Source of the DNA: a virus
Taxonomy: Duplodnaviria > Caudoviricetes
Length of the DNA: 43,685 nucleotides
Virus record (IMG/VR): IMGVR_UViG_3300032233_002662
Coordinates: 1-43,685 of that record
Strand: one strand, 5' to 3'
Shown here: positions 7,868 through 20,351 of the stretch, one piece after another
Layout of the letters: each line of letters opens with the position of its first letter
Numbering within the stretch: position 1 is the stretch's first letter
Made by a program: the position numbers and the translations under genes
The notes under the pieces: model-generated
The model's input: only the letters and a program-made list of their open reading frames with translations
What the model was told of the DNA's origin: nothing
Database searches by the model: none

Positions 7868-8809
7868 ATGGATAATACAGCTCTACTATTCTTAATTGAA
7901 TCAGTACTAGGTAAAGGACAATCAACAAGTAAAGGCAACTATGCTTTTAAGTGTCCATTCTGTACACACCATAAACCAAAATTAGAAATTAATTTACGTA
8001 CAACAGCTAAACGTGAAAACTTTTGGCATTGTTGGATCTGTAGTGCTAAGGGTAAAACATTACTTTCATTATTCAAAAAGATGAAAGTTCCAGACAACAA
8101 AATAGGAGAACTAAACATCCTAATAATCCCAGACAATACTAAAAATATTGAGTTAAGTGCTGTACAATTACCTAAAGAATTTATTTCATTAATTGATACA
8201 ACTAATTTAGATAAAATATTACAAATTGAATTAAAGCACGTTTTAAAATTTCTTAAATCACGTGGTTTAACTCAAGATGATATAATTAAATACAATATTG
8301 GTTTTTGTAAAGATGGTAAATATGGAGGCCGTGTTATTATTCCTTCATATGACAACGACAAAAAATTAAATTATTTTATAGCTAGAGACTATAAAGGTGA
8401 AACACCTCAAAAATACAAAAATCCACCAGTAGCGGCTAAAGACGTTATTGGTTTTGAACTATATATAAATTGGGATGCACCAATTATACTTGTTGAAGGT
8501 ATGTTTGATGCTCTCACCATTAAACGTAATGTTATTCCTTTATTTGGAAAAGCAATACACGGTAAATTAATGGAGAAACTAGTTAAATCTTCTGTTGATA
8601 GAATTTATATTGCTTTAGATCAAGACGCTAGGCGCGATGCTTTAAAACAGGCTGAAATGCTTATGTCATACGGCAAAGAAATATATTTGGTAGAGATGGA
8701 AGGTAAAGACGCTAACGAAATCGGTTTTGAAAATTTTTTAAACACTATTGAGCAAACACAACCACTGAATTTTCAGAGTTTACTTGAGAAAAAATTACAA
8801 CTATTATGA
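7868..8809 (+). CDS. DNA primase (DnaG/T4 gp61-like)
   Basis: Zn finger CPFC...CWIC; YFIAR and KYKNP; TOPRIM motifs VEGMFDA and LDQDA. Confidence 0.9.
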   Translation: MDNTALLFLIESVLGKGQSTSKGNYAFKCPFCTHHKPKLEINLRTTAKRENFWHCWICSAKGKTLLSLFKKMKVPDNKIGELNILIIPDNTKNIELSAVQLPKEFISLIDTTNLDKILQIELKHVLKFLKSRGLTQDDIIKYNIGFCKDGKYGGRVIIPSYDNDKKLNYFIARDYKGETPQKYKNPPVAAKDVIGFELYINWDAPIILVEGMFDALTIKRNVIPLFGKAIHGKLMEKLVKSSVDRIYIALDQDARRDALKQAEMLMSYGKEIYLVEMEGKDANEIGFENFLNTIEQTQPLNFQSLLEKKLQLL

Positions 8810-9591
8810 TTATTGACAGGAATGCAAACCTCATTAAAGACCCTAAAATTAAGCGTCTTGTAGAGTACAGCGAAGGAGATAAACAAGTAAATGTTTTAGA
8901 CAGCCGATTTTACAGGCGCAACGACAAATACTATCCCTCAGTCACTTCAGTACTAAATTATTTCCCTAAAAACCAATTTTTTCATAATTGGCTTAAGGAT
9001 GTAGGACATAATTCAGACATTATTGCTTCTAAGGCAGCAGGTGAAGGTACACAAGTACATACTGCTATTGATCGTTATCTAAATGGAGAAGAAATTCAAT
9101 GGATTGATGAATATGGTAAAGCACAATATTCACTTGATGTTTGGAAGATGATTCTTAAGTTTGCTGATTTTTGGACAACACACAAACCCGAATTAATAGT
9201 AACTGAATACCATCTATTCTCAGATAATCATGAATATGCTGGTACAGCTGATTTAATTGTTAAAATCAATAATAAAGTTTGGTTACTTGATATTAAAACA
9301 TCCAATTCACTTCATACATCTTATGGTTTACAACTAGCAGCATACGCTGTTGCTTGGAATGAAACCCACAACCAATTAGTTGAAGATACAGGAGTATTAT
9401 GGTTGAAAGCATCTACTCGTGGTGAAGGTAAAGGTGACACAATTCAAGGTAAAGGATGGCAATTAAAACAATATGGTGGAATTGCTACTAATTTTAAGAT
9501 GTTCCAAAACATATATGAAATATATAAAATGGAAAATCCTGATTTTAAGCCTATGACTCTATTATTACCTACAAGTGTTAAATTAGCTTAA
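8806..9591 (+). CDS. PD-(D/E)XK exonuclease
   Basis: YPSVTSVL, GTQVH, YAGTADL, DIKTS and QLAAY motifs. Confidence 0.85.
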   Translation: MIIDRNANLIKDPKIKRLVEYSEGDKQVNVLDSRFYRRNDKYYPSVTSVLNYFPKNQFFHNWLKDVGHNSDIIASKAAGEGTQVHTAIDRYLNGEEIQWIDEYGKAQYSLDVWKMILKFADFWTTHKPELIVTEYHLFSDNHEYAGTADLIVKINNKVWLLDIKTSNSLHTSYGLQLAAYAVAWNETHNQLVEDTGVLWLKASTRGEGKGDTIQGKGWQLKQYGGIATNFKMFQNIYEIYKMENPDFKPMTLLLPTSVKLA

Positions 9592-9602
9592 TAAACTTTG
9601 AG

Positions 9603-9614
9603 TTATACGTATAA
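9603..9614. promoter_or_regulatory. 12-bp palindrome TTATACGTATAA upstream of the TonB receptor cassette
   Basis: Perfect palindrome. It contains ATACGTATA, a 7/9 match to the ATATTTATA motif. Confidence 0.4.
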
Positions 9615-9619
9615 GTGAA

Positions 9620-11866
9620 ATGAAACATTTATTATTTTTTCTGTTGTGTCCCTTATTTTTATTTTCTCAAGACACATTATTTAATAAGAAACTAGACAAT
9701 ATCACAGTTACTTCTGTAACTAAAAAAGAAACCAATGTAGCTGTTCTTAATATAATTAGGAACAGCTCTGTTGTTTCTGATGGATTATCTGTTGAATTTA
9801 TTAAAAAAACACCTGATCGTACTGTTGGAGACGCTCTTAAAAGGATAAACGGTGTTACTATCCAAAATGATAAATTTGTATTAGTACGTGGTTTAGCTGA
9901 TAGGTACAATTTAGCTTTACTAAATAAAACATTACTTCCATCTACAGAACCAGATAGAAGAGCTTTCTCATTTGATATTATCCCATCAGGATTAATTGAT
10001 AATATTATTATCGCTAAATCGGCTGCTGCTAATTTACCTGGAGATTTTGCAGGAGGAATTGTACAAATAACAACTAAAGACGTATCAAATAATTTTTTCT
10101 CCTTAAGCACAGGATTCAGTTATGGAACGGTGTCTACATTCCAAAAATTCAAATCGGTGGAATATACGCCGTTTCCGCAGAGCTTTCCATCCACATATCG
10201 ATTCCGCATAGGAAGTAATGGTGATAGAAGAGCATATACTCAATTAATTAATTCACCTAAAGTACGAACTATTAGCTCTGTGCCTAATACAAATAATTCA
10301 TTTTCTTTTGGATTAAAAAAGAATAAATGGAATTTAGTATTTAGTTCAGTTCATAGATATTCATACTCAATAAATTATACTGACAGACAAGATTACCAGT
10401 CATCAACTGAACTAGCATACAAATACAAAGATACTTCTTATTCTACTACACAATTGGTAAATGGATTAGCTAATATTACTTATATAGGTAAAAATAAGTA
10501 TAGCTTAAAGACATTATTTAATCATCAAGTAGAACAATTATATTTAACTCGTAATGGAGAAAATTATGATAACGTTCAAAATGTAAAAAGTAACTCATCT
10601 AATCACATTGTTAAAACTGTTGTAAATTCTCAATTTGATGGTAAAATTAAAACATTAGATTTCAATTTAGGTTATAATTTGATGTTACGTGATCAACCCG
10701 ACTATAGAGTTAATCCAATTACTAAATCATTAGGTGTAAATGAACCCTATGCTGTTGCTTGGAGAGACACATATCGTTTTTGGAGTGTAATGAATGAAAA
10801 TAGTTTTAATGGGAGTATTAATAAAACTTTTGATAAAATTAAAGTGGGTGGTGGCTATCTTAAAAAGATAAGAAATTTCCAAGCCAGAATATTCAGATAT
10901 GAGGCTACAGATATGCTAAATGAAATCACAAATAACACAGATAGATACAAAGCTGATTTTGATTTAGCAACAGGATATGCAATGTATGATAGTGATTTTG
11001 GAAAGTGGAAATTAAATACTGGTTTGAGAACAGAATATAACCTATTTGATGTTAACACAGCTGACTTTAGTGGTCAAAAAGTAAATGTGAATAGAGAATA
11101 CCTTGATCTACTCCCATCATTAAATTTATCTTATAACTTAGATAAAACTAAATTTAGGTTTTCAGCTAGTAAAACCTTAGCACGTCCTGAGTTTAGAGAA
11201 GTAGCTAATTTTGCCTATTATGATTTTGTTCGTAACGCACAAATATTAGGTAATTCTAAATTAGAAAAATCAGACATCTACAACTTAGATCTTAAATATG
11301 AATATTATCCTAAATCAGGTGAAAATATATCAGTTGGAGTATTCGGTAAGAACTTTATCAAACCTATTGAACAAATAGTAGCAGATGGTTCGGTTCCATC
11401 TAATTTATTACTTACTTTTACTAATCCAAATAAAGCAACCGTTTATGGTATTGAATTTGAATTACGTAAAAAAATAAATAATTGGTTAGATTTCTACACT
11501 AATTCATCTTTAATTCATTCCGAAGTAAAAGTAAATGGGATTAAACGTCAACTACAAGGTCAATCAAACTACATTGTAAATGGTGGTTTAAATTTCCATA
11601 AAAATAAAAATACACTAAACGTTACATATAACCGTGTCGGAGATAGACTATCAGCTGTTGGTTTCCAAGGGTATGCAGACATATTTGAAAATAGTAGAAA
11701 TATTTTAGATGTAGTATACTTAAGAAAAATAAATAAAGGCGAAATTAAGATTGCAATAAACGACATTTTCGCTCAATCATCAATATATTATCAAAAAACA
11801 AAAGGCGATTTAATTAAAACAAACAACGAACAAACAATTTCATTAACTATTAATTTCAATTTATGA
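9620..11866 (+). CDS. TonB-dependent outer-membrane receptor
   Basis: Signal peptide; plug domain (DALKRINGV...VRGLADRYN...GDFAGGIVQITTK); beta-barrel motifs GLRTEY, LLPSLNL, ARPEFRE; C-terminal strand ISLTINFNL. Confidence 0.92.
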   Translation: MKHLLFFLLCPLFLFSQDTLFNKKLDNITVTSVTKKETNVAVLNIIRNSSVVSDGLSVEFIKKTPDRTVGDALKRINGVTIQNDKFVLVRGLADRYNLALLNKTLLPSTEPDRRAFSFDIIPSGLIDNIIIAKSAAANLPGDFAGGIVQITTKDVSNNFFSLSTGFSYGTVSTFQKFKSVEYTPFPQSFPSTYRFRIGSNGDRRAYTQLINSPKVRTISSVPNTNNSFSFGLKKNKWNLVFSSVHRYSYSINYTDRQDYQSSTELAYKYKDTSYSTTQLVNGLANITYIGKNKYSLKTLFNHQVEQLYLTRNGENYDNVQNVKSNSSNHIVKTVVNSQFDGKIKTLDFNLGYNLMLRDQPDYRVNPITKSLGVNEPYAVAWRDTYRFWSVMNENSFNGSINKTFDKIKVGGGYLKKIRNFQARIFRYEATDMLNEITNNTDRYKADFDLATGYAMYDSDFGKWKLNTGLRTEYNLFDVNTADFSGQKVNVNREYLDLLPSLNLSYNLDKTKFRFSASKTLARPEFREVANFAYYDFVRNAQILGNSKLEKSDIYNLDLKYEYYPKSGENISVGVFGKNFIKPIEQIVADGSVPSNLLLTFTNPNKATVYGIEFELRKKINNWLDFYTNSSLIHSEVKVNGIKRQLQGQSNYIVNGGLNFHKNKNTLNVTYNRVGDRLSAVGFQGYADIFENSRNILDVVYLRKINKGEIKIAINDIFAQSSIYYQKTKGDLIKTNNEQTISLTINFNL

Positions 11867-13065
11867 AAAAATTATTAGGACTTATTTTAGTATTAGCATT
11901 ATTTAGCTGCAAGAAAGAATTAGGTGGTGGTGAAGGACCAATCAATGTACCTTCAACTACAACATTGGTTGGTAATATTAACACAACAACCACATTAACA
12001 TCAGACAAAGTTTGGACATTAAAAGGTTATGTTTATGTAACCGACGGTGCTAAACTTATCATCCAACCTGGAACCACTATTATAAGTGATATTGCTGAGA
12101 AGGGTGCTTTGTGTATTGAAAGAGGAGCTCAAATTATAGCTGAAGGTACAGCTGCAAAACCAATTATATTCACCTCAGGCAAAAACGCTGGAGAGAGGTC
12201 TCCTGGTGATTGGGGTGGTATTGTAATTTTAGGCCGTGCCAAAACTAATAGATCATCAGAACCAACTATTGAAGGTGGTATTGGTCGTCCCTATGGTGGT
12301 ACAAATGATGCTGATAACAGCGGAGTATTAAAGTATGTTCGTATTGAATATGCTGGTATTGCTGCATTACCTAATTCAGAAATTAATGCCTTGACATTAG
12401 GAGCTGTAGGTAGTGGTACTGTAATTGAACATGTTCAAACAGTATATGCTAACGACGATGCATTTGAATTTTTTGGTGGAACTGTATCTCCTAAAAATAT
12501 ATATGCATTTGCAACCGCGGATGATGATTATGATTTTGATTTCGGTTATACTGGAACTGTAACAAACGGTGTATCAAAGCGTGATCCTCAATTCGTAGAT
12601 AATGGCGATGCCGGTAACGGTGTAGAATGTGATAATGATGGTACTGGCTCACCTGCAACACCATTTACACATCCTAAATTAATAGGTATGGTATTGGTTG
12701 GGCCATTTGATGCTGCTTCATTAGCAAACCATAATTTAGGTTTAAGATGGAGACGTGCAACACAATTCACAATGACTAATTCTAAAATATTAGGATATAT
12801 GAAGGGTGGATTTAGTATTGAATCAAATGAAACCGCTCAATCTTACAAAGATGGTATTTCTAAATTTCAAAATAATGAAATTCAATCATTTGACCCATTA
12901 CAAAATTTTAGATCTACTTCTACTGTATTTATAGCTGCGGATATGAAAACAAAGTCGTTAGGTGAAGGCAATAAAGAAGTAAACTACACTAAATTAGAAA
13001 TGGAAACTTTAGCAAAACCATCATGGATTAATGGATGGACTCGTTTTCCGTCTAAAGGACAATAA
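11863..13065 (+). CDS. surface lipoprotein with beta-helix fold, partner of the TonB receptor
   Basis: Lipobox LFS-C followed by KKE (Bacteroidota-type export signal); GDWGGIVILG, SGVLKYVRIEYAG, DDAFEFFGG and DDDYDFDFGY repeats. ATGA overlap with the receptor gene. Confidence 0.85.
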   Translation: MKKLLGLILVLALFSCKKELGGGEGPINVPSTTTLVGNINTTTTLTSDKVWTLKGYVYVTDGAKLIIQPGTTIISDIAEKGALCIERGAQIIAEGTAAKPIIFTSGKNAGERSPGDWGGIVILGRAKTNRSSEPTIEGGIGRPYGGTNDADNSGVLKYVRIEYAGIAALPNSEINALTLGAVGSGTVIEHVQTVYANDDAFEFFGGTVSPKNIYAFATADDDYDFDFGYTGTVTNGVSKRDPQFVDNGDAGNGVECDNDGTGSPATPFTHPKLIGMVLVGPFDAASLANHNLGLRWRRATQFTMTNSKILGYMKGGFSIESNETAQSYKDGISKFQNNEIQSFDPLQNFRSTSTVFIAADMKTKSLGEGNKEVNYTKLEMETLAKPSWINGWTRFPSKGQ

Positions 13066-13751
13066 TGAATCAACAATTAACCATAGTAATTCCTTGCAAA
13101 AATGAAGGTAAAGGAATAATTGATGTGTTAAAATTGATTTTATCTCAAATTGATTGCAAAATAATAATAGCGGATTCCTCAACTGAGGAATCTTCTATTT
13201 TATTATTAAAAAAATATCAATCAATATGTAAAAATATAGAAATAATTGAGGGTGGATTACCTGCTATTGCTCGCAATAATGGAGCTAAACTAGTAACAAC
13301 ACCTCATATCTTATTCCTAGATGCCGACATATACCCAGAACAAGATACGATTAAAAAATGTATTAGAGCTGCTATTAAAGGCAAATATGATTTAGTTACT
13401 TGTAAATTTAAAACAGATAAAGGGTATAATTGGTTATATAGAGCCTTTGATGTATTTCAATGGTATAGTTCAAAAACAAAACCATTTGCTTTAGGTGGCT
13501 TTATGTTATTTAAAACAGAAATCTTTAATAAATTAGAAGGATTTAATGAAAAAGATAAAATTGCCGAGGATTATCACCTCAGCTCCAAAATTAAACCTAA
13601 CCGTTTTAAAATCACAAACGATTTCGTTTATACTTCAAGTAGAAGATTTAGTAAAAAAGGTGTATGGTATATGATTGTATTAGCTTGGAAATCATGGCTA
13701 AACAGAAATAATGATGAGTTTTTTAAACAAGATTTTAATTATTGGAAATGA
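13065..13751 (+). CDS. family 2 glycosyltransferase
   Basis: IVIPCKNE, ARNNGA, LFLDAD, EDY and TSSRRF motifs. Confidence 0.9.
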   Translation: MNQQLTIVIPCKNEGKGIIDVLKLILSQIDCKIIIADSSTEESSILLLKKYQSICKNIEIIEGGLPAIARNNGAKLVTTPHILFLDADIYPEQDTIKKCIRAAIKGKYDLVTCKFKTDKGYNWLYRAFDVFQWYSSKTKPFALGGFMLFKTEIFNKLEGFNEKDKIAEDYHLSSKIKPNRFKITNDFVYTSSRRFSKKGVWYMIVLAWKSWLNRNNDEFFKQDFNYWK

Positions 13752-14494
13752 AAAATTACAAAGCAATAATAGTTTCTGATTTACATTTAGGTACTAAAGA
13801 TTCTAAAGCTGAAGAATTTTTAGAATTTATAGATAAACACCCAACAGATCTTTTAATATTAAACGGTGATATTATTGATGGTTGGGCTTTAAATAGAGGA
13901 TCAAAATGGAAAAAACAACACACTAAAGTACTAGGTAAAATATTAAAATTATCTAATAAAATACAAGTAATTTGGATTAGAGGTAATCATGATGAATTTT
14001 TACAAGAATTTATAGGTAATAATTTTGGTGGTATAGAATTTAGAGAAGATTATAAAATTGAATATGCTGAACATATTGAATATGATAATTGGGAAAGAAG
14101 ATGTTATTATGTTTTTCATGGTGATGTAATTGATGTGTTTATAACAAAATATACATGGTTATCTAAATTAGGAGCTATTGGCTACGATTTTGCCTTAACT
14201 TTAAATCGTTGGTATAACAAATATCGCAAATGGTATAAATTACCTTACCAATCAATATCCCAAAAAATAAAAAGTAGTGTTAAAACAGCTACTAATTACG
14301 TCAATGATTTTGAAACTACAGCATTAAAAATGGCTGAAAAGAAAGGATGTGATGGTGTTATGTGTGGCCATATCCACCAACCAGAAGATCGTATAATAAA
14401 TGGTAAAAGATATCTTAATAGTGGTGATTGGGTAGAAAATATGAGTGCAATACTTATCGACACACACGGAAAAATTCACATTTATAATAATTAA
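13748..14494 (+). CDS. plcP: calcineurin-like metallophosphoesterase, PlcP/LpxH2 family (phospholipase C-like; usually annotated UDP-2,3-diacylglucosamine hydrolase)
   Basis: SDLHLG, GDIIDGW, GNHDE, HGD, CGHIH and YLNSGDWVE motifs. Start moved to the ATG at 13748, which overlaps the GT2 stop (ATGA). Confidence 0.75.
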   Translation: MKNYKAIIVSDLHLGTKDSKAEEFLEFIDKHPTDLLILNGDIIDGWALNRGSKWKKQHTKVLGKILKLSNKIQVIWIRGNHDEFLQEFIGNNFGGIEFREDYKIEYAEHIEYDNWERRCYYVFHGDVIDVFITKYTWLSKLGAIGYDFALTLNRWYNKYRKWYKLPYQSISQKIKSSVKTATNYVNDFETTALKMAEKKGCDGVMCGHIHQPEDRIINGKRYLNSGDWVENMSAILIDTHGKIHIYNN

Positions 14495-14497
14495 GTC

Positions 14498-14623
14498 ATG
14501 TACAAAATCGTAGATTTACTATTTAATTTTAACACAGGTAAAAAAATTAATCTTGAAAGAGATATAGCTTGGGGCTTTATTGCGTTTTTTCTAATTTTTG
14601 CTTTAGTTAAATTAACTGCATAA
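14498..14623 (+). CDS. small membrane protein (41 aa, not in the ORF track)
   Basis: MYKIVDLLFNFNTGKKINLERDIAWGFIAFFLIFALVKLTA has one C-terminal hydrophobic helix. It starts 3 nt after the previous stop. Confidence 0.55.
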   Translation: MYKIVDLLFNFNTGKKINLERDIAWGFIAFFLIFALVKLTA

Positions 14624-14635
14624 TTAAAACAACCA

Positions 14636-14680
14636 ATATTTATAGGTAGCTTGGACTGTCCATGCTACCTATTTATGTTT
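14636..14680 (+). promoter_or_regulatory. ATATTTATA motif overlapping a stem-loop (possible terminator of the upstream cassette)
   Basis: Motif at 14636-14644. Inverted repeat ATAGGTAGC-T-TGGA-CTG-TCCA-T-GCTACCTAT at 14642-14672, followed by a T-rich tract. Confidence 0.55.
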
Positions 14681-14684
14681 AATT

Positions 14685-15656
14685 ATGATCAAATTACTCA
14701 ACCTAGCTAAGCAGATATTAAAAGAAGGTGGTAACGTATTCGGTACTACTGATTCAATTGAAAAAGATAACATTGAACCTACAATTGAAAAATTTGTAGA
14801 GCAATTATCTAAAATATTCCCTGCTAAAGCATCTACATTTACCTCATTTGAAAAATTAGGATCAGCCGGTAAGAAAAATGTATCGGGTGATATTGATTTA
14901 TCATACGATATTAAAAATATATTTCCTGGTGGTAAACCCGACTTTAAAGGTTGGGGTGTAGATGAAAGTAAATATAACGACTTATTAGCACAATTTACTA
15001 AGAAAGCCAGAACAGCATCACCTGAGAAACTTCAGTTACGTGCTATGATTGTATTAATTGGAGATAAAATTAACGATGCTTTACCTGATGTTGAAGTAGA
15101 TCTTAAAGCATCTGGTGCTGGTTCTATATTTTGTGCTGTTCCTCAGTACGGACCTAACGGTGAAAAAGTAGGTAAAGCAGTTCAAACCGACATTAACGTA
15201 GGTAATCCTGAATGGCTACGTTTTAGTTATTATTCTCAATCATATGAAGGTAATGTTAAAGGTTTACACCGTACACAGTTAATGTTAGCTTTATTTGCTA
15301 ATAAAGGTAAATCATTTGGTCATACTACAGGCGTAATTGATAAAGAAACAGGTGAAAAAGAAGCATCTAATCCTAAAGAAGCTATTGCTTTATTAAATCA
15401 ATTATATGGCTTTAATTTAACTCAAGATATTCTAGATGATTATTTTAAGTTAGAAGATTTTATGAGGAAAAATATATCTAAAGAAGAATATAATTCTATT
15501 ATGGATAGATACCTTAAAATACTTGACTCAACTCGAGCAGACATACCAGATAATTTACAAAAATACTGGGTTGATAATCAAGATAGATTAGGATTAAAAG
15601 GTAAATTCTTACCGGATAATTCTAAATTAATTCCTTACCAAAAAGAAAAAGCCTAA
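14685..15656 (+). CDS. Pol-beta-superfamily nucleotidyltransferase with virion-targeting leader
   Basis: GSAGKKNVSGDIDL plus a third Asp in VQTDINV. Leader is MIKLLNLAKQILKE. Confidence 0.7.
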   Translation: MIKLLNLAKQILKEGGNVFGTTDSIEKDNIEPTIEKFVEQLSKIFPAKASTFTSFEKLGSAGKKNVSGDIDLSYDIKNIFPGGKPDFKGWGVDESKYNDLLAQFTKKARTASPEKLQLRAMIVLIGDKINDALPDVEVDLKASGAGSIFCAVPQYGPNGEKVGKAVQTDINVGNPEWLRFSYYSQSYEGNVKGLHRTQLMLALFANKGKSFGHTTGVIDKETGEKEASNPKEAIALLNQLYGFNLTQDILDDYFKLEDFMRKNISKEEYNSIMDRYLKILDSTRADIPDNLQKYWVDNQDRLGLKGKFLPDNSKLIPYQKEKA

Positions 15657-18600
15657 TGTCTGGATCAGCAGGTGGAAATAGAATTACTAGAGAATCGGTT
15701 GCTAAAACCGTTGACTCCTATATTAACAGGATATTAAAAAAATTTCCTGCTTTTAAAAGCGCCAAAGTTTCAGGCTCATATAACACAAGCGCTAAAGAAG
15801 ACTTTGGTGATATTGATTTAATTGTTAATCTAGAATCAGAGGATAAAAAAGGGGTTAAAGTAAACTTAGCTAAATTTCTATCATCATTATCAGACGATGT
15901 TATTGTTCCTTTTAAAAGTGAAAAATATAAAGGTAAAAAATACCTAAACACAGGTGAGATAGTTACTATACTATATCCTATAGAAGGCCAATCAGGCGAA
16001 TATGTTCAAATAGATAATATTGTTTCTGTAAGTGATGATGAGGCTGAATTCAAGAAAGAATTTTTAGATTATCCTGCTGAAATACAAGGATTATTATTAG
16101 GATTAGCTAAAGTTATATGTTTAGAAGAAGATCCTAAATCAATATTTGCTCGTATGGGTATTAATAACATACCTGAACTTGAGGTAAATCAAGAATATGA
16201 ATTTAATTTATCAAGCGCTGGATTGACACTACGTATCGTAACATTAGATAACTTTAAAGAAACTGATCGTACCGAAGTATGGAAAACTAGCAACTGGTCC
16301 AACATCAAGCGGCTATTTACCAACTACAAAATAGACGGTAGCTTCGAAGATCTATTAAATGATATATCATCTAAGGTAAAAAACCCACGCTCAAAAAATC
16401 GCATTAAAGGCATTTTTAATTCGATGGTATCTATTAAAAGTGGTGAAGTAGGTACACCTAAAGGCGATAATAAACAAAAATCATTAGATAAAGTGAATAA
16501 TACATTAAGCGAAACAAATTTAGGCAGATACCTTGTATCATTACTATTAGAGCAAGACCAACCAACAATAGCATTATTCCCAGGTAAATTCAAACCACCA
16601 CATAAAGGGCACTTTAGTGTAGTAAAACAACTACTTAATAAAGCAGATCAAGTAGTAGTATTAATTTCACCTAAAATACACGATGGCATTTCACCTGATG
16701 AAAGTGTTGCTGCTTGGGAATTATACAAAGATCAATTAGTAGATGGTAATAAAGTTGAATTAAGAGTATCGGCTGTTACACCTGTTAGAGATGTGTATGA
16801 TTTTGTAGAAAATAATCCTGAATTAACAGTATATGCTGCTTATGGTAAAGGTGAAGAGAGTAGATATAAAAATTTAAGTAAGTATCCAAACGCAAAAATA
16901 TTTGATGCTGGTAATTTTGGTGGTTTAAATGCTACTGATCTTAGAAAAGCAATAAGAGATGGTAATGAAGAAGAAATTAAAAAATTCTTACCTGATGGAG
17001 TTGAAGTAGCTGATTTTCTACTAGCAATGGGTAAAAAGGCTAAAGAAGAACCTAAACCACAACCATCTCCACAACCCGAACCGCAACCTGAAACACCTCC
17101 TGCAGCTCCTGTAGCTGAAAGAAAATACCAGAATCAAGACGACATGTTTGCTGATTATGTTTTATCTAAAGAGGCAGATGTTGAAGATACAGCTCAAGTA
17201 TTCAATATACCTATCCCAGATGTAAGGTATGCATTTACAGTAGGTAATATGGTAGTATTATCTGATGATATTTGGAATAAATTAGAAAATAAAAACCATG
17301 AAGATGCAGATAGTGAAATTAGTGGTCCTCCTATGATTTTAAATTATGATACAGATAGATATTATTTGACATATGGTAGTCGTATATTAGCTGATTATAA
17401 AAAATTAAATAAAATACCTAAAGTATTACTGGGTGTTTTAGATTTGGAAGGCCCTAAACCATGGCCTTTAAAAGAATATTCCGATAAAATTGTTAATCAA
17501 TTAGTTGATAAATTTAAGCAGGAAAAACCTAATCTAGGAGTTGATATTATCAAAGCATATATTAATCGCTTTAGTCAAATTAAAAATAATCCTAGAGTAA
17601 CTGAAAAAGATATTACTAAATATAATTGGAAAGACCTAGAAACTACAGTTGATGCTAATCAACCAAAACGCATCAAGGCAGGTAAAATAAACGATGGTGA
17701 ACCTAGTAAAGATGCTAATTTAGTTTATAATCAAAATGGATTAAGAATATATGTAGGTAAAACTAAAAACGCTTGTATTAAATACGGCAATGGATATTCA
17801 TTCTGTATCTCAGCTCGTGGTGATGATAATATGTATTATGACTACAGATATGAACAACAAGGAACACCATACTTTGTGTTTGATGATGAAAAATCATCTG
17901 AACAAGATAAAAATGGAGATTTTATAGATCCAACTCATTTATTAGTAGTATTTGTACATGAACATCCTGAATTAGCCGATGATGACGACGATGATGAAAC
18001 CAGATATATTAGATATAGTAATGAACCTAGCTACACTGTAACTACAGCAGATAATCCTGGTGAAAGTAATTATTCAAATTTCCAATCAATAGAATCTGTT
18101 TACCCTGAACTGAAAGGGCTAGAAGATATATTTAAGCCTGTAGAAGTAGATCCAAAAGAAAAAGCAGAATATAATCTTGATAGAAAGTACGATGCTTTAT
18201 TAGGTTCTATTAATGAAAGTTACGGTAATAGGAATGATAGAAATTATCAAGAAGGATTCTGGGAAAGATATAATTTTGGAAGTATTAAGTGGGCTAATAA
18301 ACTTATTGATGAGTTTATAAATGATAAAGTAGAAGTATATCGTTTTAGTGGAAGACTTAAACCTGGAGCAGAAGGTGATTATATAACAAATACCGTAAAT
18401 CAAGACAGACTTGTAAAAGTGGGAGGTAAAATAAGTGTAGAAGATCAAAAGAGAAGTTTTATAGAAGAAATAATAATACCACTTTCATATGATGGAAATG
18501 CTAAAAACCTTAATATTATAGATGAGTGGGACGTAACATATAAAAAAACAAACACCTCAGATCCTTTATTTAAAAAATATCTTGAAGAAATTAAACAATT

Positions 18601-19033
18601 AGTAGATAAATATAGAAATGATTTGTCTAAACTAAGGTTAATGAAAGAAGGTTTAGAACGCAAAACCAAACTAAACGAAAGCGAAACAGCTACTATAGGT
18701 GAATTTATAAAATATGCGATCAAAAACTTGGAAATACAAAAACCTCCACGTAACTTAACCTTCTCATACGATAATGCGACTGCTAAGGAGAAAAGGAGTT
18801 TTGGTTATTTTGATCCGAATGCTAATAAGATATGGGTGTATTGCGGAAATAGAAACATGGCTGATATTTTAAGAACACTAGCACATGAATTAGTACACCG
18901 TAAGCAAGACGAAGAAGGACGCATTAATTACGAAAGTGGAAAAACAGGAAGTGATATAGAAAACGAAGCAAACGCTAAAGCAGGAATCTTATTAAGAGAT
19001 TTTGGCAAACAACATAAAGAAATATACCAATAA
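15656..19033 (+). CDS. multidomain protein: Pol-beta nucleotidyltransferase, HxGH cytidylyltransferase-like, degenerate ParB-like, PcfJ-like and zincin metallopeptidase domains
   Basis: SGSYNTSAKEDFGDIDL and VQIDN; FPGKFKPPHKGH; Pro-rich linker; ACIKYGNGYSFCIS; TLAHELVH...ENEANA. Confidence 0.7.
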   Translation: MSGSAGGNRITRESVAKTVDSYINRILKKFPAFKSAKVSGSYNTSAKEDFGDIDLIVNLESEDKKGVKVNLAKFLSSLSDDVIVPFKSEKYKGKKYLNTGEIVTILYPIEGQSGEYVQIDNIVSVSDDEAEFKKEFLDYPAEIQGLLLGLAKVICLEEDPKSIFARMGINNIPELEVNQEYEFNLSSAGLTLRIVTLDNFKETDRTEVWKTSNWSNIKRLFTNYKIDGSFEDLLNDISSKVKNPRSKNRIKGIFNSMVSIKSGEVGTPKGDNKQKSLDKVNNTLSETNLGRYLVSLLLEQDQPTIALFPGKFKPPHKGHFSVVKQLLNKADQVVVLISPKIHDGISPDESVAAWELYKDQLVDGNKVELRVSAVTPVRDVYDFVENNPELTVYAAYGKGEESRYKNLSKYPNAKIFDAGNFGGLNATDLRKAIRDGNEEEIKKFLPDGVEVADFLLAMGKKAKEEPKPQPSPQPEPQPETPPAAPVAERKYQNQDDMFADYVLSKEADVEDTAQVFNIPIPDVRYAFTVGNMVVLSDDIWNKLENKNHEDADSEISGPPMILNYDTDRYYLTYGSRILADYKKLNKIPKVLLGVLDLEGPKPWPLKEYSDKIVNQLVDKFKQEKPNLGVDIIKAYINRFSQIKNNPRVTEKDITKYNWKDLETTVDANQPKRIKAGKINDGEPSKDANLVYNQNGLRIYVGKTKNACIKYGNGYSFCISARGDDNMYYDYRYEQQGTPYFVFDDEKSSEQDKNGDFIDPTHLLVVFVHEHPELADDDDDDETRYIRYSNEPSYTVTTADNPGESNYSNFQSIESVYPELKGLEDIFKPVEVDPKEKAEYNLDRKYDALLGSINESYGNRNDRNYQEGFWERYNFGSIKWANKLIDEFINDKVEVYRFSGRLKPGAEGDYITNTVNQDRLVKVGGKISVEDQKRSFIEEIIIPLSYDGNAKNLNIIDEWDVTYKKTNTSDPLFKKYLEEIKQLVDKYRNDLSKLRLMKEGLERKTKLNESETATIGEFIKYAIKNLEIQKPPRNLTFSYDNATAKEKRSFGYFDPNANKIWVYCGNRNMADILRTLAHELVHRKQDEEGRINYESGKTGSDIENEANAKAGILLRDFGKQHKEIYQ

Positions 19034-19961: not shown

Positions 19962-20351
19962 ATGAATTCTCTAGTAACACCAAGTCCTATATTAGGCCAA
20001 TTTATTTCAACCCTATTTGCATCCAGAACACAAGCACACGTATTTCATCTTCAAACAAATTCATTTGCTGCTCATAAAGCATTAAATGAATATTATGATG
20101 AAATTATTGGTCGTGCTGATGGTATTGCCGAATCAGTACAAGGTAAATATGGTATTATCACTGGCTATAGTAATATTGATTTATTAGAAGGTAATGATTG
20201 TAATGAAGTAATTAAATACTTTACAGCATTAGAAATGTATGTTGAAAGAGCTCGTCAAACAATGCCACAAGATTCATATATTCAAAATCAAATTGATGAA
20301 GTAGTAGCACTAATTGTTAGTACTATATATAAATTAAAATTCCTTAAATAA
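19962..20351 (+). CDS. ferritin/Dps-like four-helix protein
   Basis: AHVFHLQT..FAAHKALNEYYD...DGIAESVQG and IQNQIDE...YKLKFL motifs. Confidence 0.7.
   Translation: MNSLVTPSPILGQFISTLFASRTQAHVFHLQTNSFAAHKALNEYYDEIIGRADGIAESVQGKYGIITGYSNIDLLEGNDCNEVIKYFTALEMYVERARQTMPQDSYIQNQIDEVVALIVSTIYKLKFLK

Follow-up and report, generated by a model that had tools for sequence, protein, structure and literature searches.

Gene content of the locus

The window analysed here, the whole 43,685-nt stretch of record IMGVR_UViG_3300032233_002662, covers part of the genome of a large T4-like phage; genes for a primase, an exonuclease, the terminase, the portal and a prohead protease were identified in it. It carries five consecutive frames that combine a putative outer-membrane importer with a candidate lipid-remodelling enzyme pair; these frames and the flanking features described here are all on the plus strand. 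The first encodes a 748-residue TonB-dependent transporter with a signal-like N-terminus, a plug and a β-barrel (9620..11866). It is followed by a 400-residue surface lipoprotein with an invariant Cys16 and a modelled right-handed β-helix (11863..13065), a 228-residue, single-domain family 2 glycosyltransferase (GT2) of a phage-dominated clade (13065..13751), a PlcP-type metallophosphoesterase of 248 residues from its ATG (13748..14494), and a 41-residue open reading frame (ORF) with one hydrophobic stretch (14498..14623). Start and stop codons overlap as ATGA at 11863-11866 and 13748-13751 and as TAATG at 13063-13067. An earlier account drawn from the letters of the window (the sequence-only reading) had described four intact, translationally coupled genes of host type plus a small membrane ORF, and the frames and overlaps bear this out. 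The GC content of the five frames resembles that of the remaining window. Ratios of non-synonymous to synonymous substitution (dN/dS) are 0.05-0.19 for the four main genes, with two to three relatives per gene, and 0.09-0.14 for the 41-residue frame, which 11 of 80 loci have 3′ of the phospholipase; these values indicate that all five are under purifying selection.

Host-type genes on a metagenomic contig might be host DNA mis-joined to phage, or a recent neutral acquisition. Every junction from the exonuclease to a downstream 323-residue gene is, however, bridged by contigs of runs from three other studies (X2, X3 and X7): the exonuclease–transporter and lipoprotein–GT2 junctions by all three, and the transporter–lipoprotein, GT2–enzyme and enzyme–323-residue gene junctions by X2 and X3. 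This refutes chimerism and places the region on the phage, as had been assumed. The lipoprotein and the enzyme form phage-only clades, dN/dS is below 0.2, and viral contigs give 121 transporter and 113 enzyme matching stretches, so that mis-joining or neutral pick-up is hardly credible. By terminase, the closest isolate is Flavobacterium phage immuto, at 53% identity. Runs that contain the stretch carry the labels freshwater, lake, wastewater or just metagenome, with no RNA runs among those listed.

The region occupies a variable slot. The left border is a PD-(D/E)XK exonuclease gene (8806..9591, by family matches), which is 97-98% identical in L001, L081 and L086, relatives whose slot contents differ (L-numbers denote individual loci, G-numbers whole phage records). 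The right border is the 323-residue gene, whose leader (14636..14672) lies outside the modules and comprises the motif ATATTTATA and a hairpin, recognised by conservation and folding score. Of the proposed placement between exonuclease and virion genes, the exonuclease side stands; the downstream genes are without a virion-family match, and the terminase and portal genes lie at a distance of 19-20 kb. The hairpin, at approximately 14642-14672 (z −6.0 for region 14620-14690), had been read as closing the cassette. It trails the ATATTTATA motif and is retained 5′ of the 323-residue gene in 6/6 relatives examined, irrespective of the preceding module, and is therefore not part of the cassette. 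It is possibly a translational control element or a terminator, and a terminator scan, run alongside a sigma-70 scan, did not call it as the latter. The hairpin stands right behind ATATTTATA in L001, L003, L081, L086, L095 and L118, and the base changes in L118 look compensatory.

Two separately mobile modules

Contrary to the earlier proposal, the four genes do not move together as a single cassette. Among large freshwater phages, the importer with its lipoprotein and GT2 with the phospholipase each occur alone, and the region consists of two separately mobile phage modules side by side in the variable slot. In the best 80 of 121 viral transporter loci, the lipoprotein follows the transporter directly in 74, the remaining six stopping at a contig edge, and GT2 and the enzyme continue the locus in 5 (three gene contexts). 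In the best 80 of 113 enzyme loci, GT2 lies 5′ of the enzyme in 73 and a transporter is present in 2. The post-exonuclease slot of the close relatives holds transporter and lipoprotein only in L001, GT2 and enzyme only in L081, and the enzyme only in L086. Loci with all four genes have the gene order of the window; in two of these, L006 and L007, GT2 retains its own spacer and an upstream repeat (see below), and the window has no spacer there.

Twenty-eight whole phage records were also examined, of which 10 are at least 90% complete and 18 less than 90%. PhoH is present in 18 of the 28 and PstS in none (0/28), and the modules may thus stand in for PstS. In L089, L094, L095, L124 and L149 an ORF of 94-97 residues (cluster 155) lies immediately 5′ of the phospholipase, replacing or accompanying GT2. 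The 326-kb record G315, which carries the importer pair, also encodes a more diverged PlcP-type enzyme (53%) at a distance of 80 kb from the pair (G315:C1:242550-243233).

Structure and context of the transporter and lipoprotein

The transporter matches the Pfam families Plug and OMP_b-brl_3, and its AlphaFold model (predicted local distance difference test, pLDDT, 84) gives Foldseek matches to FepA, FecA and PhuR with E-values of 1e-24 to 1e-21. Family match and model agree on a plug domain within a large β-barrel, as in TonB-dependent transporters. The stretch LDNITVTS, ahead of the plug, resembles a TonB box; TonB_C was found in 0/5 phage records, and the importer would be powered by host TonB. 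In the alignment the phage protein is without the N-terminal extension domain of the bacterial copies and has loop deletions in common with those of Aquirufa. Phage transporters are approximately 825 residues long with an N-terminal extension (L007, L033, L043) and approximately 750 residues without (the window, L004, L006). A SusCD or PusCD system was considered and rejected: the transporter does not match TIGR04056, a SusD domain is absent, and the partner is a β-helix.

The lipoprotein has no family match. Its model is a β-helix with a pLDDT of 93, for which Foldseek returned weak β-helix matches, none at E≤0.001. Single-sequence searches of the PDB with the enzyme, lipoprotein and transporter gave no match, nor did a profile of the lipoprotein. 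A complex model of the barrel (residues 146-748) with the lipoprotein (17-400) scored 0.81, compared with 0.00 for the best of three controls, on a scale whose mark is attained by 116/157 solved pairs and 2/215 mismatched pairs; solved transporter–lipoprotein complexes with other lid folds exist, and such likeness may raise the docking score. At least 91% of contacts recur between runs, and the pLDDT of the partner is at least 91. The modelled contacts involve the long loops that connect the strands of the barrel, as expected of a lid, and the lipoprotein is predicted to be the lid of the transporter. The model also offers a first structural hypothesis for one of the most strongly phosphate-responsive, unexplained surface proteins of Bacteroidota, as follows.

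Among 80 bacterial loci the lipoprotein adjoins the transporter in 79. The neighbours include PitA (29), a PhoR-like kinase (23), PhoU-like (20), a PhoB-like regulator (19), PlcP-like (18), a GT-B glycosyltransferase (11), porin O/P (8) and OlsF-like (7), the PhoB- and PhoR-like assignments being below curated cut-offs. Bacterial relatives of the pair are thus surrounded by phosphate-starvation genes, in support of the sequence-only reading. In Aquirufa avitistagni the order is transporter, lipoprotein, phosphodiesterase-like gene, PitA and porin, then GT-B and PlcP-like. Among the closest described systems, in sections of PMC8115612, is Fjoh_0545/Fjoh_0546 of Flavobacterium johnsoniae, which is induced by log2 8-10 under depletion of inorganic phosphate and belongs to the phoBR cluster PUSIV. 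There too a Plug and OMP_b-brl_3 transporter is followed by a β-helix lipoprotein, and bacterial relatives of the phage pair share its neighbours (PhoB/R-like genes, porin O/P and a PF04101 glycosyltransferase); the phage copy differs in being trimmed (748 residues, no N-terminal extension, shorter loops). The same source likens the ‘FII’ lipoprotein Fjoh_0546 to a Caulobacter protein, and Caulobacter ElpS has been tied to phosphatase activity in passages of PMC2996285. The phage lipoprotein has a lipobox Cys, a modelled β-helix, a gene right after the transporter and, in its bacterial relatives, Pho-type neighbours, matching the entries of Table 1 of PMC8115612, and is probably FII/ElpS-like. 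The pair is thus assignable to the Fjoh_0545/0546 type by architecture and synteny rather than by direct sequence comparison.

The closest cellular copies of the importer pair are from Aquirufa (72-76%). The trimmed, phage-type pair is present in 12/64 Aquirufa genomes, within the phosphate island, where it replaces the family-typical copy; the 43-52% type is found in 41/64 and also in the other sampled members of the family. Lipoprotein trees were built with FastTree and with IQ-TREE, the latter with 38 rows thinned from 136 plus 29. In the 38-row IQ-TREE, the phage copies group with those of Aquirufa in a single clade (100/100) within Chitinophagaceae/Sphingobacteriaceae copies, apart from other Spirosomataceae. 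This indicates a transfer of the pair into Aquirufa, the tree being silent on direction relative to phages, and phage-mediated gene replacement is possible. Aquirufa was considered as the host but not adopted, since its phage-type copy appears to be an import. A 635-kb phage has a distant transporter and lipoprotein in reverse order (LR745206.1, 77475-81048), likely an independent acquisition.

The PlcP-type enzyme

The enzyme belongs to the Metallophos family. The metal motifs DxH, GDIIDGW, GNHD, HGD, GHIH and GDW are conserved and every metal ligand is kept; GNH alone is undiagnostic, as the LpxH-like paralogues of Bacteroidota share it. Identity is 40% to the Pseudomonas aeruginosa copy (E 8e-63) and 23% to Escherichia coli LpxH (E 1.6e-4). 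In a tree of 46 rows, in which LpxH is a long branch, the enzyme joins Bacteroidota Pho-locus copies and the PlcP-type proteins of P. aeruginosa and Sinorhizobium meliloti, rows taken as orthologues of PA3219 and SMc00171 by neighbourhood and similarity and not by locus tags, and LpxH is split off with a support of 100/99. The 23 phage rows form a single clade (100/100). By its place in this tree the enzyme groups with PlcP-type phospholipases and not with LpxH, as the sequence-only reading had expected.

Annotation would suggest another role, that of a lipid A enzyme, LpxH, boosting lipopolysaccharide synthesis. LpxH is the usual database label and the only solved relative found by profile (E 2e-12), and sections of a Lake Baikal virome study list viral ‘lpxH’ among helper genes (PMC9611531). 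Several observations speak against this: the enzyme is outside the LpxH clade, with 20-25% identity to LpxH, it scores 41 bits with NF003743 where the cut-off is 134, and hosts carry a distinct LpxH-like gene, such a paralogue being present in 5/5 Bacteroidota genomes. An LpxH function is very improbable, and ‘lpxH’ calls in lists of viral helper genes may be mislabelled PlcP. More distant copies of the enzyme are found in Pelagibacter phage Mosig and cyanophage S-SRM01, both annotated as a lipid A enzyme. In Mosig (L161:6903-8738, MT647606.1), the PlcP-type gene is divergent from an adjoining phosphate ABC transporter gene. As a cultured phage, Mosig is an isolate in which a phage PlcP is testable.

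The linked glycosyltransferase

The GT2 motifs DxD (86-88), ED (168-169) and RR (193-194) are invariant in 41 rows. There are 1102 relatives at E≤1e-30, and the nearest Atlas clusters are first viral, then of Acidobacteriota and others. Bacteroidota genomes give weak matches (27-33%) in 12 of 301 and, with GT2 as a profile, in 1 of 401. No cellular GT2–PlcP pair was found in plasmids or Bacteroidota genomes, other phyla not having been searched and the 80 metagenome loci having been used without viral or cellular classification. Seen from the side of GT2, the enzyme is directly 3′ in 74 of 82 loci with room, 5′ in 5 and within 1.5 kb in 2; in the five loci of reversed order, the linkage is kept all the same.

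It had been supposed that the adjacent glycosyltransferase makes phosphorus-free glycolipid from diacylglycerol (DAG). The linkage to PlcP holds. The family does not: the phage gene is a GT2, belonging to a family without demonstrated lipid synthesis, and neither an Agt nor the plcP-linked GT-B (GT4 or GT28-like) of Bacteroidota, with no BLAST match to the GT-B of 80 bacterial loci and no close match in the 401 Bacteroidota genomes. Since GT2 has no close counterpart in Bacteroidota, glycolipid synthesis is unproven, and from the linkage we put the chances that GT2 glycosylates DAG at about even. In bacteria, plcP often adjoins a glycosyltransferase of varying family, and the characterised ones named in sections of PMC4796936, PMC8528852 and PMC9239053 are of Agt type.

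Alternatively, the phospholipase frees phosphorus and GT2 acts on another acceptor, such as ceramide, the released head group or a surface glycan, while host enzymes patch the membrane. The missing close cellular orthologue in the 301 and 401 Bacteroidota genomes would fit such a role, as would the solved GT2 relatives, which are generic GT2s, and the phospholipases without GT2 in several relatives (e.g. L086, L089, L094 and L095); Dokdonia, according to PMC4796936, swaps phospholipids for aminolipids. This has to be set against a linkage that is very tight in both directions and survives reversal of the gene order (5 loci), the common placement of bacterial plcP beside glycosyltransferases of varying family (a section of PMC4796936) and a weak GT21 match. 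A different acceptor is a serious alternative, if not the one to which we would give the greater weight.

The bacterial remodelling systems of S. meliloti, Phaeobacter MED193, SAR11 HTCC7211 and P. aeruginosa (PA3219-PA3218), as far as described in passages of PMC4796936 and PMC8528852, resemble the phage pair in having a PlcP-clade enzyme with intact motifs that is coupled to a glycosyltransferase, often with an 11-bp-phased repeat upstream. They differ in the partner, which is Agt (GT4), or in Bacteroidota a GT-B placed downstream, whereas in the phages it is a phage-clade GT2 placed upstream; the phage pair is carried by lytic phages and is known from its genes alone. GT2 is a concrete candidate for an unknown lipid glycosyltransferase.

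A Pho-box-like repeat and a putative phage promoter motif

Upstream sequences contain a repeat, TAAY(A)-N6-TAAY, with an 11-bp period. The Pho box consists of tandem 11-nt direct repeats before phosphate-starvation genes (a section of PMC4415409), and repeats of this form occur in bacteria and in related phages and are absent from the window. Within 250 nt of the start, the repeat is found at 65/66 bacterial transporters, compared with 131/960 other genes. Among these other genes it is frequent before the PhoB-like regulator (15/19), PlcP-like (13/17), PitA (12/32) and lipoprotein (27/79) genes and a cluster without family match (13/18), occurs before porin O/P in 3/8, and is rare or missing before PhoU-like (1/20) and PhoR-like (0/22) genes. 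With a slightly stricter pattern and 130 nt of upstream sequence, phages have the repeat before 40/52 transporters and 27/45 GT2s, compared with 32/883 spaced and 31/1673 packed other genes, and before 0/54 lipoproteins and 0/55 enzymes behind GT2. Spaced starts in a first set of GT2 loci have it in 34/40. In whole records it precedes 1/79 spaced genes in G305 (the transporter), 3/85 in G311 (including the transporter) and 2/74 in G326 (including GT2).

A weight matrix built from the bacterial sites gives medians of 8.8 and 7.2 at phage module starts, compared with approximately −6. Few phage starts exceed 12 bits (7/52 and 6/45), because the phage half-sites are more AT-rich. A search of three whole bacterial genomes for triple repeats gave 11 matches, compared with 5 in the reversed control; of nine distinct places, four are before TonB-type transporters, two by plcP or PhoU-like genes and three without assignment, which is modest support. 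In three relatives a site upstream of the exonuclease also scored highly and was disregarded because it falls within the primase frame. The repeat is likely a host Pho box; finding it ahead of both modules in relatives of the phage independently strengthens the case for a link to phosphate, and it provides a testable Bacteroidota Pho-box consensus.

The window has a different element at this position. The motif ATACGTATA, a variant of ATATTTATA, lies at 9605..9613, 15 nt 5′ of the importer start, in a lineage from which the tandem repeat is absent; a variant of the motif follows the exonuclease stop in the 22 listed relatives with a post-exonuclease slot, and in this exo-slot lineage the module is placed right behind it. 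Motifs of this class (ATA-x-x-TAT) are found within 60 nt upstream of 11/47 window genes, including the portal, compared with 9 occurrences in 37,583 bases of coding sequence. Scanning for sigma-70 promoters gave no excess over chance (39 vs 38.7). We infer that the ATA-x-x-TAT motif is a phage promoter. In phages that have both elements, the distance from repeat to motif peaks at 28-30 nt (34/60), 19 nt (9) and 41 nt (3), in steps of approximately 11. Exact matches to ATATTTATA number nine, all on the plus strand and mostly intergenic (943, 6156, 14636, 19621, 31305, 35161 and others). We take ATATTTATA to be the reverse complement of the T4 late promoter.

Proposed role during infection

Building on the gene content, modularity, selection and family placement described above, and on the repeat in relatives, we consider it probable that the modules serve phosphate-starved Bacteroidota hosts as helpers in uptake and in the use of membrane phosphorus. 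With its predicted β-helix lid, the importer would bring more of some phosphorus compound through the outer membrane. The PlcP-type enzyme would release phosphate head groups from membrane lipids, and the GT2 linked to it would likely glycosylate the lipid that remains. Phosphorus set free in this way would help to make progeny; by our rough arithmetic the phospholipid of a small cell holds a few million phosphorus atoms, which might provide for the order of ten 170-kb genomes. In many relatives the repeat may be a PhoB site gating a phage promoter. In the lineage of the window, both modules appear to be fused in one coupled unit that the phage motif alone would drive, so that it would likely be expressed in every infection.

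Several observations weigh against this role. The host is assigned from sequence comparison, and the terminase is also 50% identical to that of a phage recorded from Microcystis. As both functions are already part of the host's own genome, the benefit to the phage is uncertain. The modules seldom co-occur: in whole records (18/28 of them less than 90% complete), the phospholipase is present in 2/15 picked for the importer, and the lipoprotein in 0/13 picked for the phospholipase. GT2 resembles neither Agt nor the GT-B that adjoins plcP in Aquirufa, and its best family score is with the arsenosugar GT2 family TIGR04283, an assignment rejected at 80.5 bits for a cut-off of 182. The repeat was first spotted by eye and its pattern fitted later, and counts from related phages are non-independent, for which reason Fisher p-values are given no weight. 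It occurs at 4/160 genes in G315 and 1/80 in G321, never at their modules; a second GT2 set has it in 8/71 loci other than exo-slot ones (8/23 spaced, 0/43 packed, 0/5 behind the phospholipase), and the exo-slot lineage of the window is without it (0/7, 0/12, 0/11). Predicted phage Pho boxes failed binding tests in cyanophages, according to a section of PMC10976474. Finally, the motif also precedes the portal gene, hinting at late expression; as the cassette motif is of this kind, the supply of phosphorus to ‘genome synthesis’ proposed earlier is not supported.

A role confined to the cell surface was also weighed, in which the modules mainly re-dress the infected cell (superinfection exclusion, altered grazing or maintenance of the membrane up to lysis) and the tie to phosphate merely reflects the origin of the genes. 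The lineage of the window and many others have the phage motif alone, without the repeat; lipid remodelling has been argued to alter phage adsorption (an unpublished observation quoted in PMC9804370), and a 2026 preprint, in the passages concerned, considers receptor-level roles of phage barrels (bioRxiv 10.64898/2026.10.24.761521). An inherited surface function, however, would not need a repeat that stands, in many phages, before two unrelated modules and hardly any other genes, at a fixed spacing to the phage motif, and this role appears unlikely.

The phosphorus-helper role can be extended, as a doubtful but far-reaching possibility, to a phosphate regulon run by large freshwater Bacteroidota phages themselves. 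Host PhoB, at a box placed whole helical turns 5′ of a phage promoter, would activate the importer and a phage-specific pathway from phospholipid to glycolipid with a new class of lipid glycosyltransferase, mining host membranes for phosphorus; some lineages, that of the window among them, would have fused the modules and dropped the switch, and the trimmed importer would have reached Aquirufa from Chitinophagaceae-type bacteria by way of phages. The two most striking of these steps are the synthesis of glycolipid and the gating by PhoB. Both are unproven, and PhoB gating is absent from the genome of the window. The modules themselves are widespread, coherent and testable, all parts being amenable to laboratory strains without phage culture. 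If the proposal is true, a virus-driven swap of phospholipid for glycolipid and a virus-supplied outer-membrane uptake would be a new form of phosphorus redirection in phosphorus-limited lakes.

Relation to known phage genes and other features of the window

The known phosphate helpers of phages are pstS, phoA and phoH, mostly in cyanophages. The genes described here are predicted to act in outer-membrane uptake and membrane-lipid turnover, where the cyanophage genes supply a periplasmic binding protein and a phosphatase, and come from phages with a presumed Bacteroidota-type host. They share with cyanophage pstS and phoA, which are under host PhoBR control (sections of PMC10976474), the combination of phosphate-related host-type genes with a predicted host regulator site; here the site is predicted only, and PstS does not occur in the 28 records.

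The sequence-only reading knew of no described phage example. This stands for PlcP and for the transporter–lipoprotein pair: the literature search, which most subscription papers lay outside, found no paper on a phage PlcP, such a phage pair or a Bacteroidota-phage Pho box. It does not extend to phage TonB-type barrels in general. The huge-phage preprint already cited (bioRxiv 10.64898/2026.10.24.761521) reports outer-membrane proteins that include 22-strand TonB-dependent receptors with phosphate-acquisition neighbours. It resembles the present case in the phage-encoded TonB-type barrel, the large freshwater phages and, in general, the phosphate-acquisition genes nearby; it differs in that its main-text passages mention neither a lipoprotein partner nor PlcP nor a Pho box, although its supplements may list the family. 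Sections of PMC12282109 and PMC9804370 deal with lipid remodelling on the host side, and a PusCD preprint made no mention of the features sought.

Two further genes lie downstream of the slot. The first (15656-19033) encodes an 1125-residue protein with, by eye, a nucleotidyltransferase-like N-terminus, a cytidylyltransferase-like domain at residues 305-340 and a HELVH metallopeptidase-like end; its length ranges from approximately 350 to 1358 residues in relatives, which suggests modular fusion. The second (19962-20351), 5 kb 3′ of the slot, belongs to DUF5856/PHROG 858 and carries the annotation of a starvation-inducible regulator.

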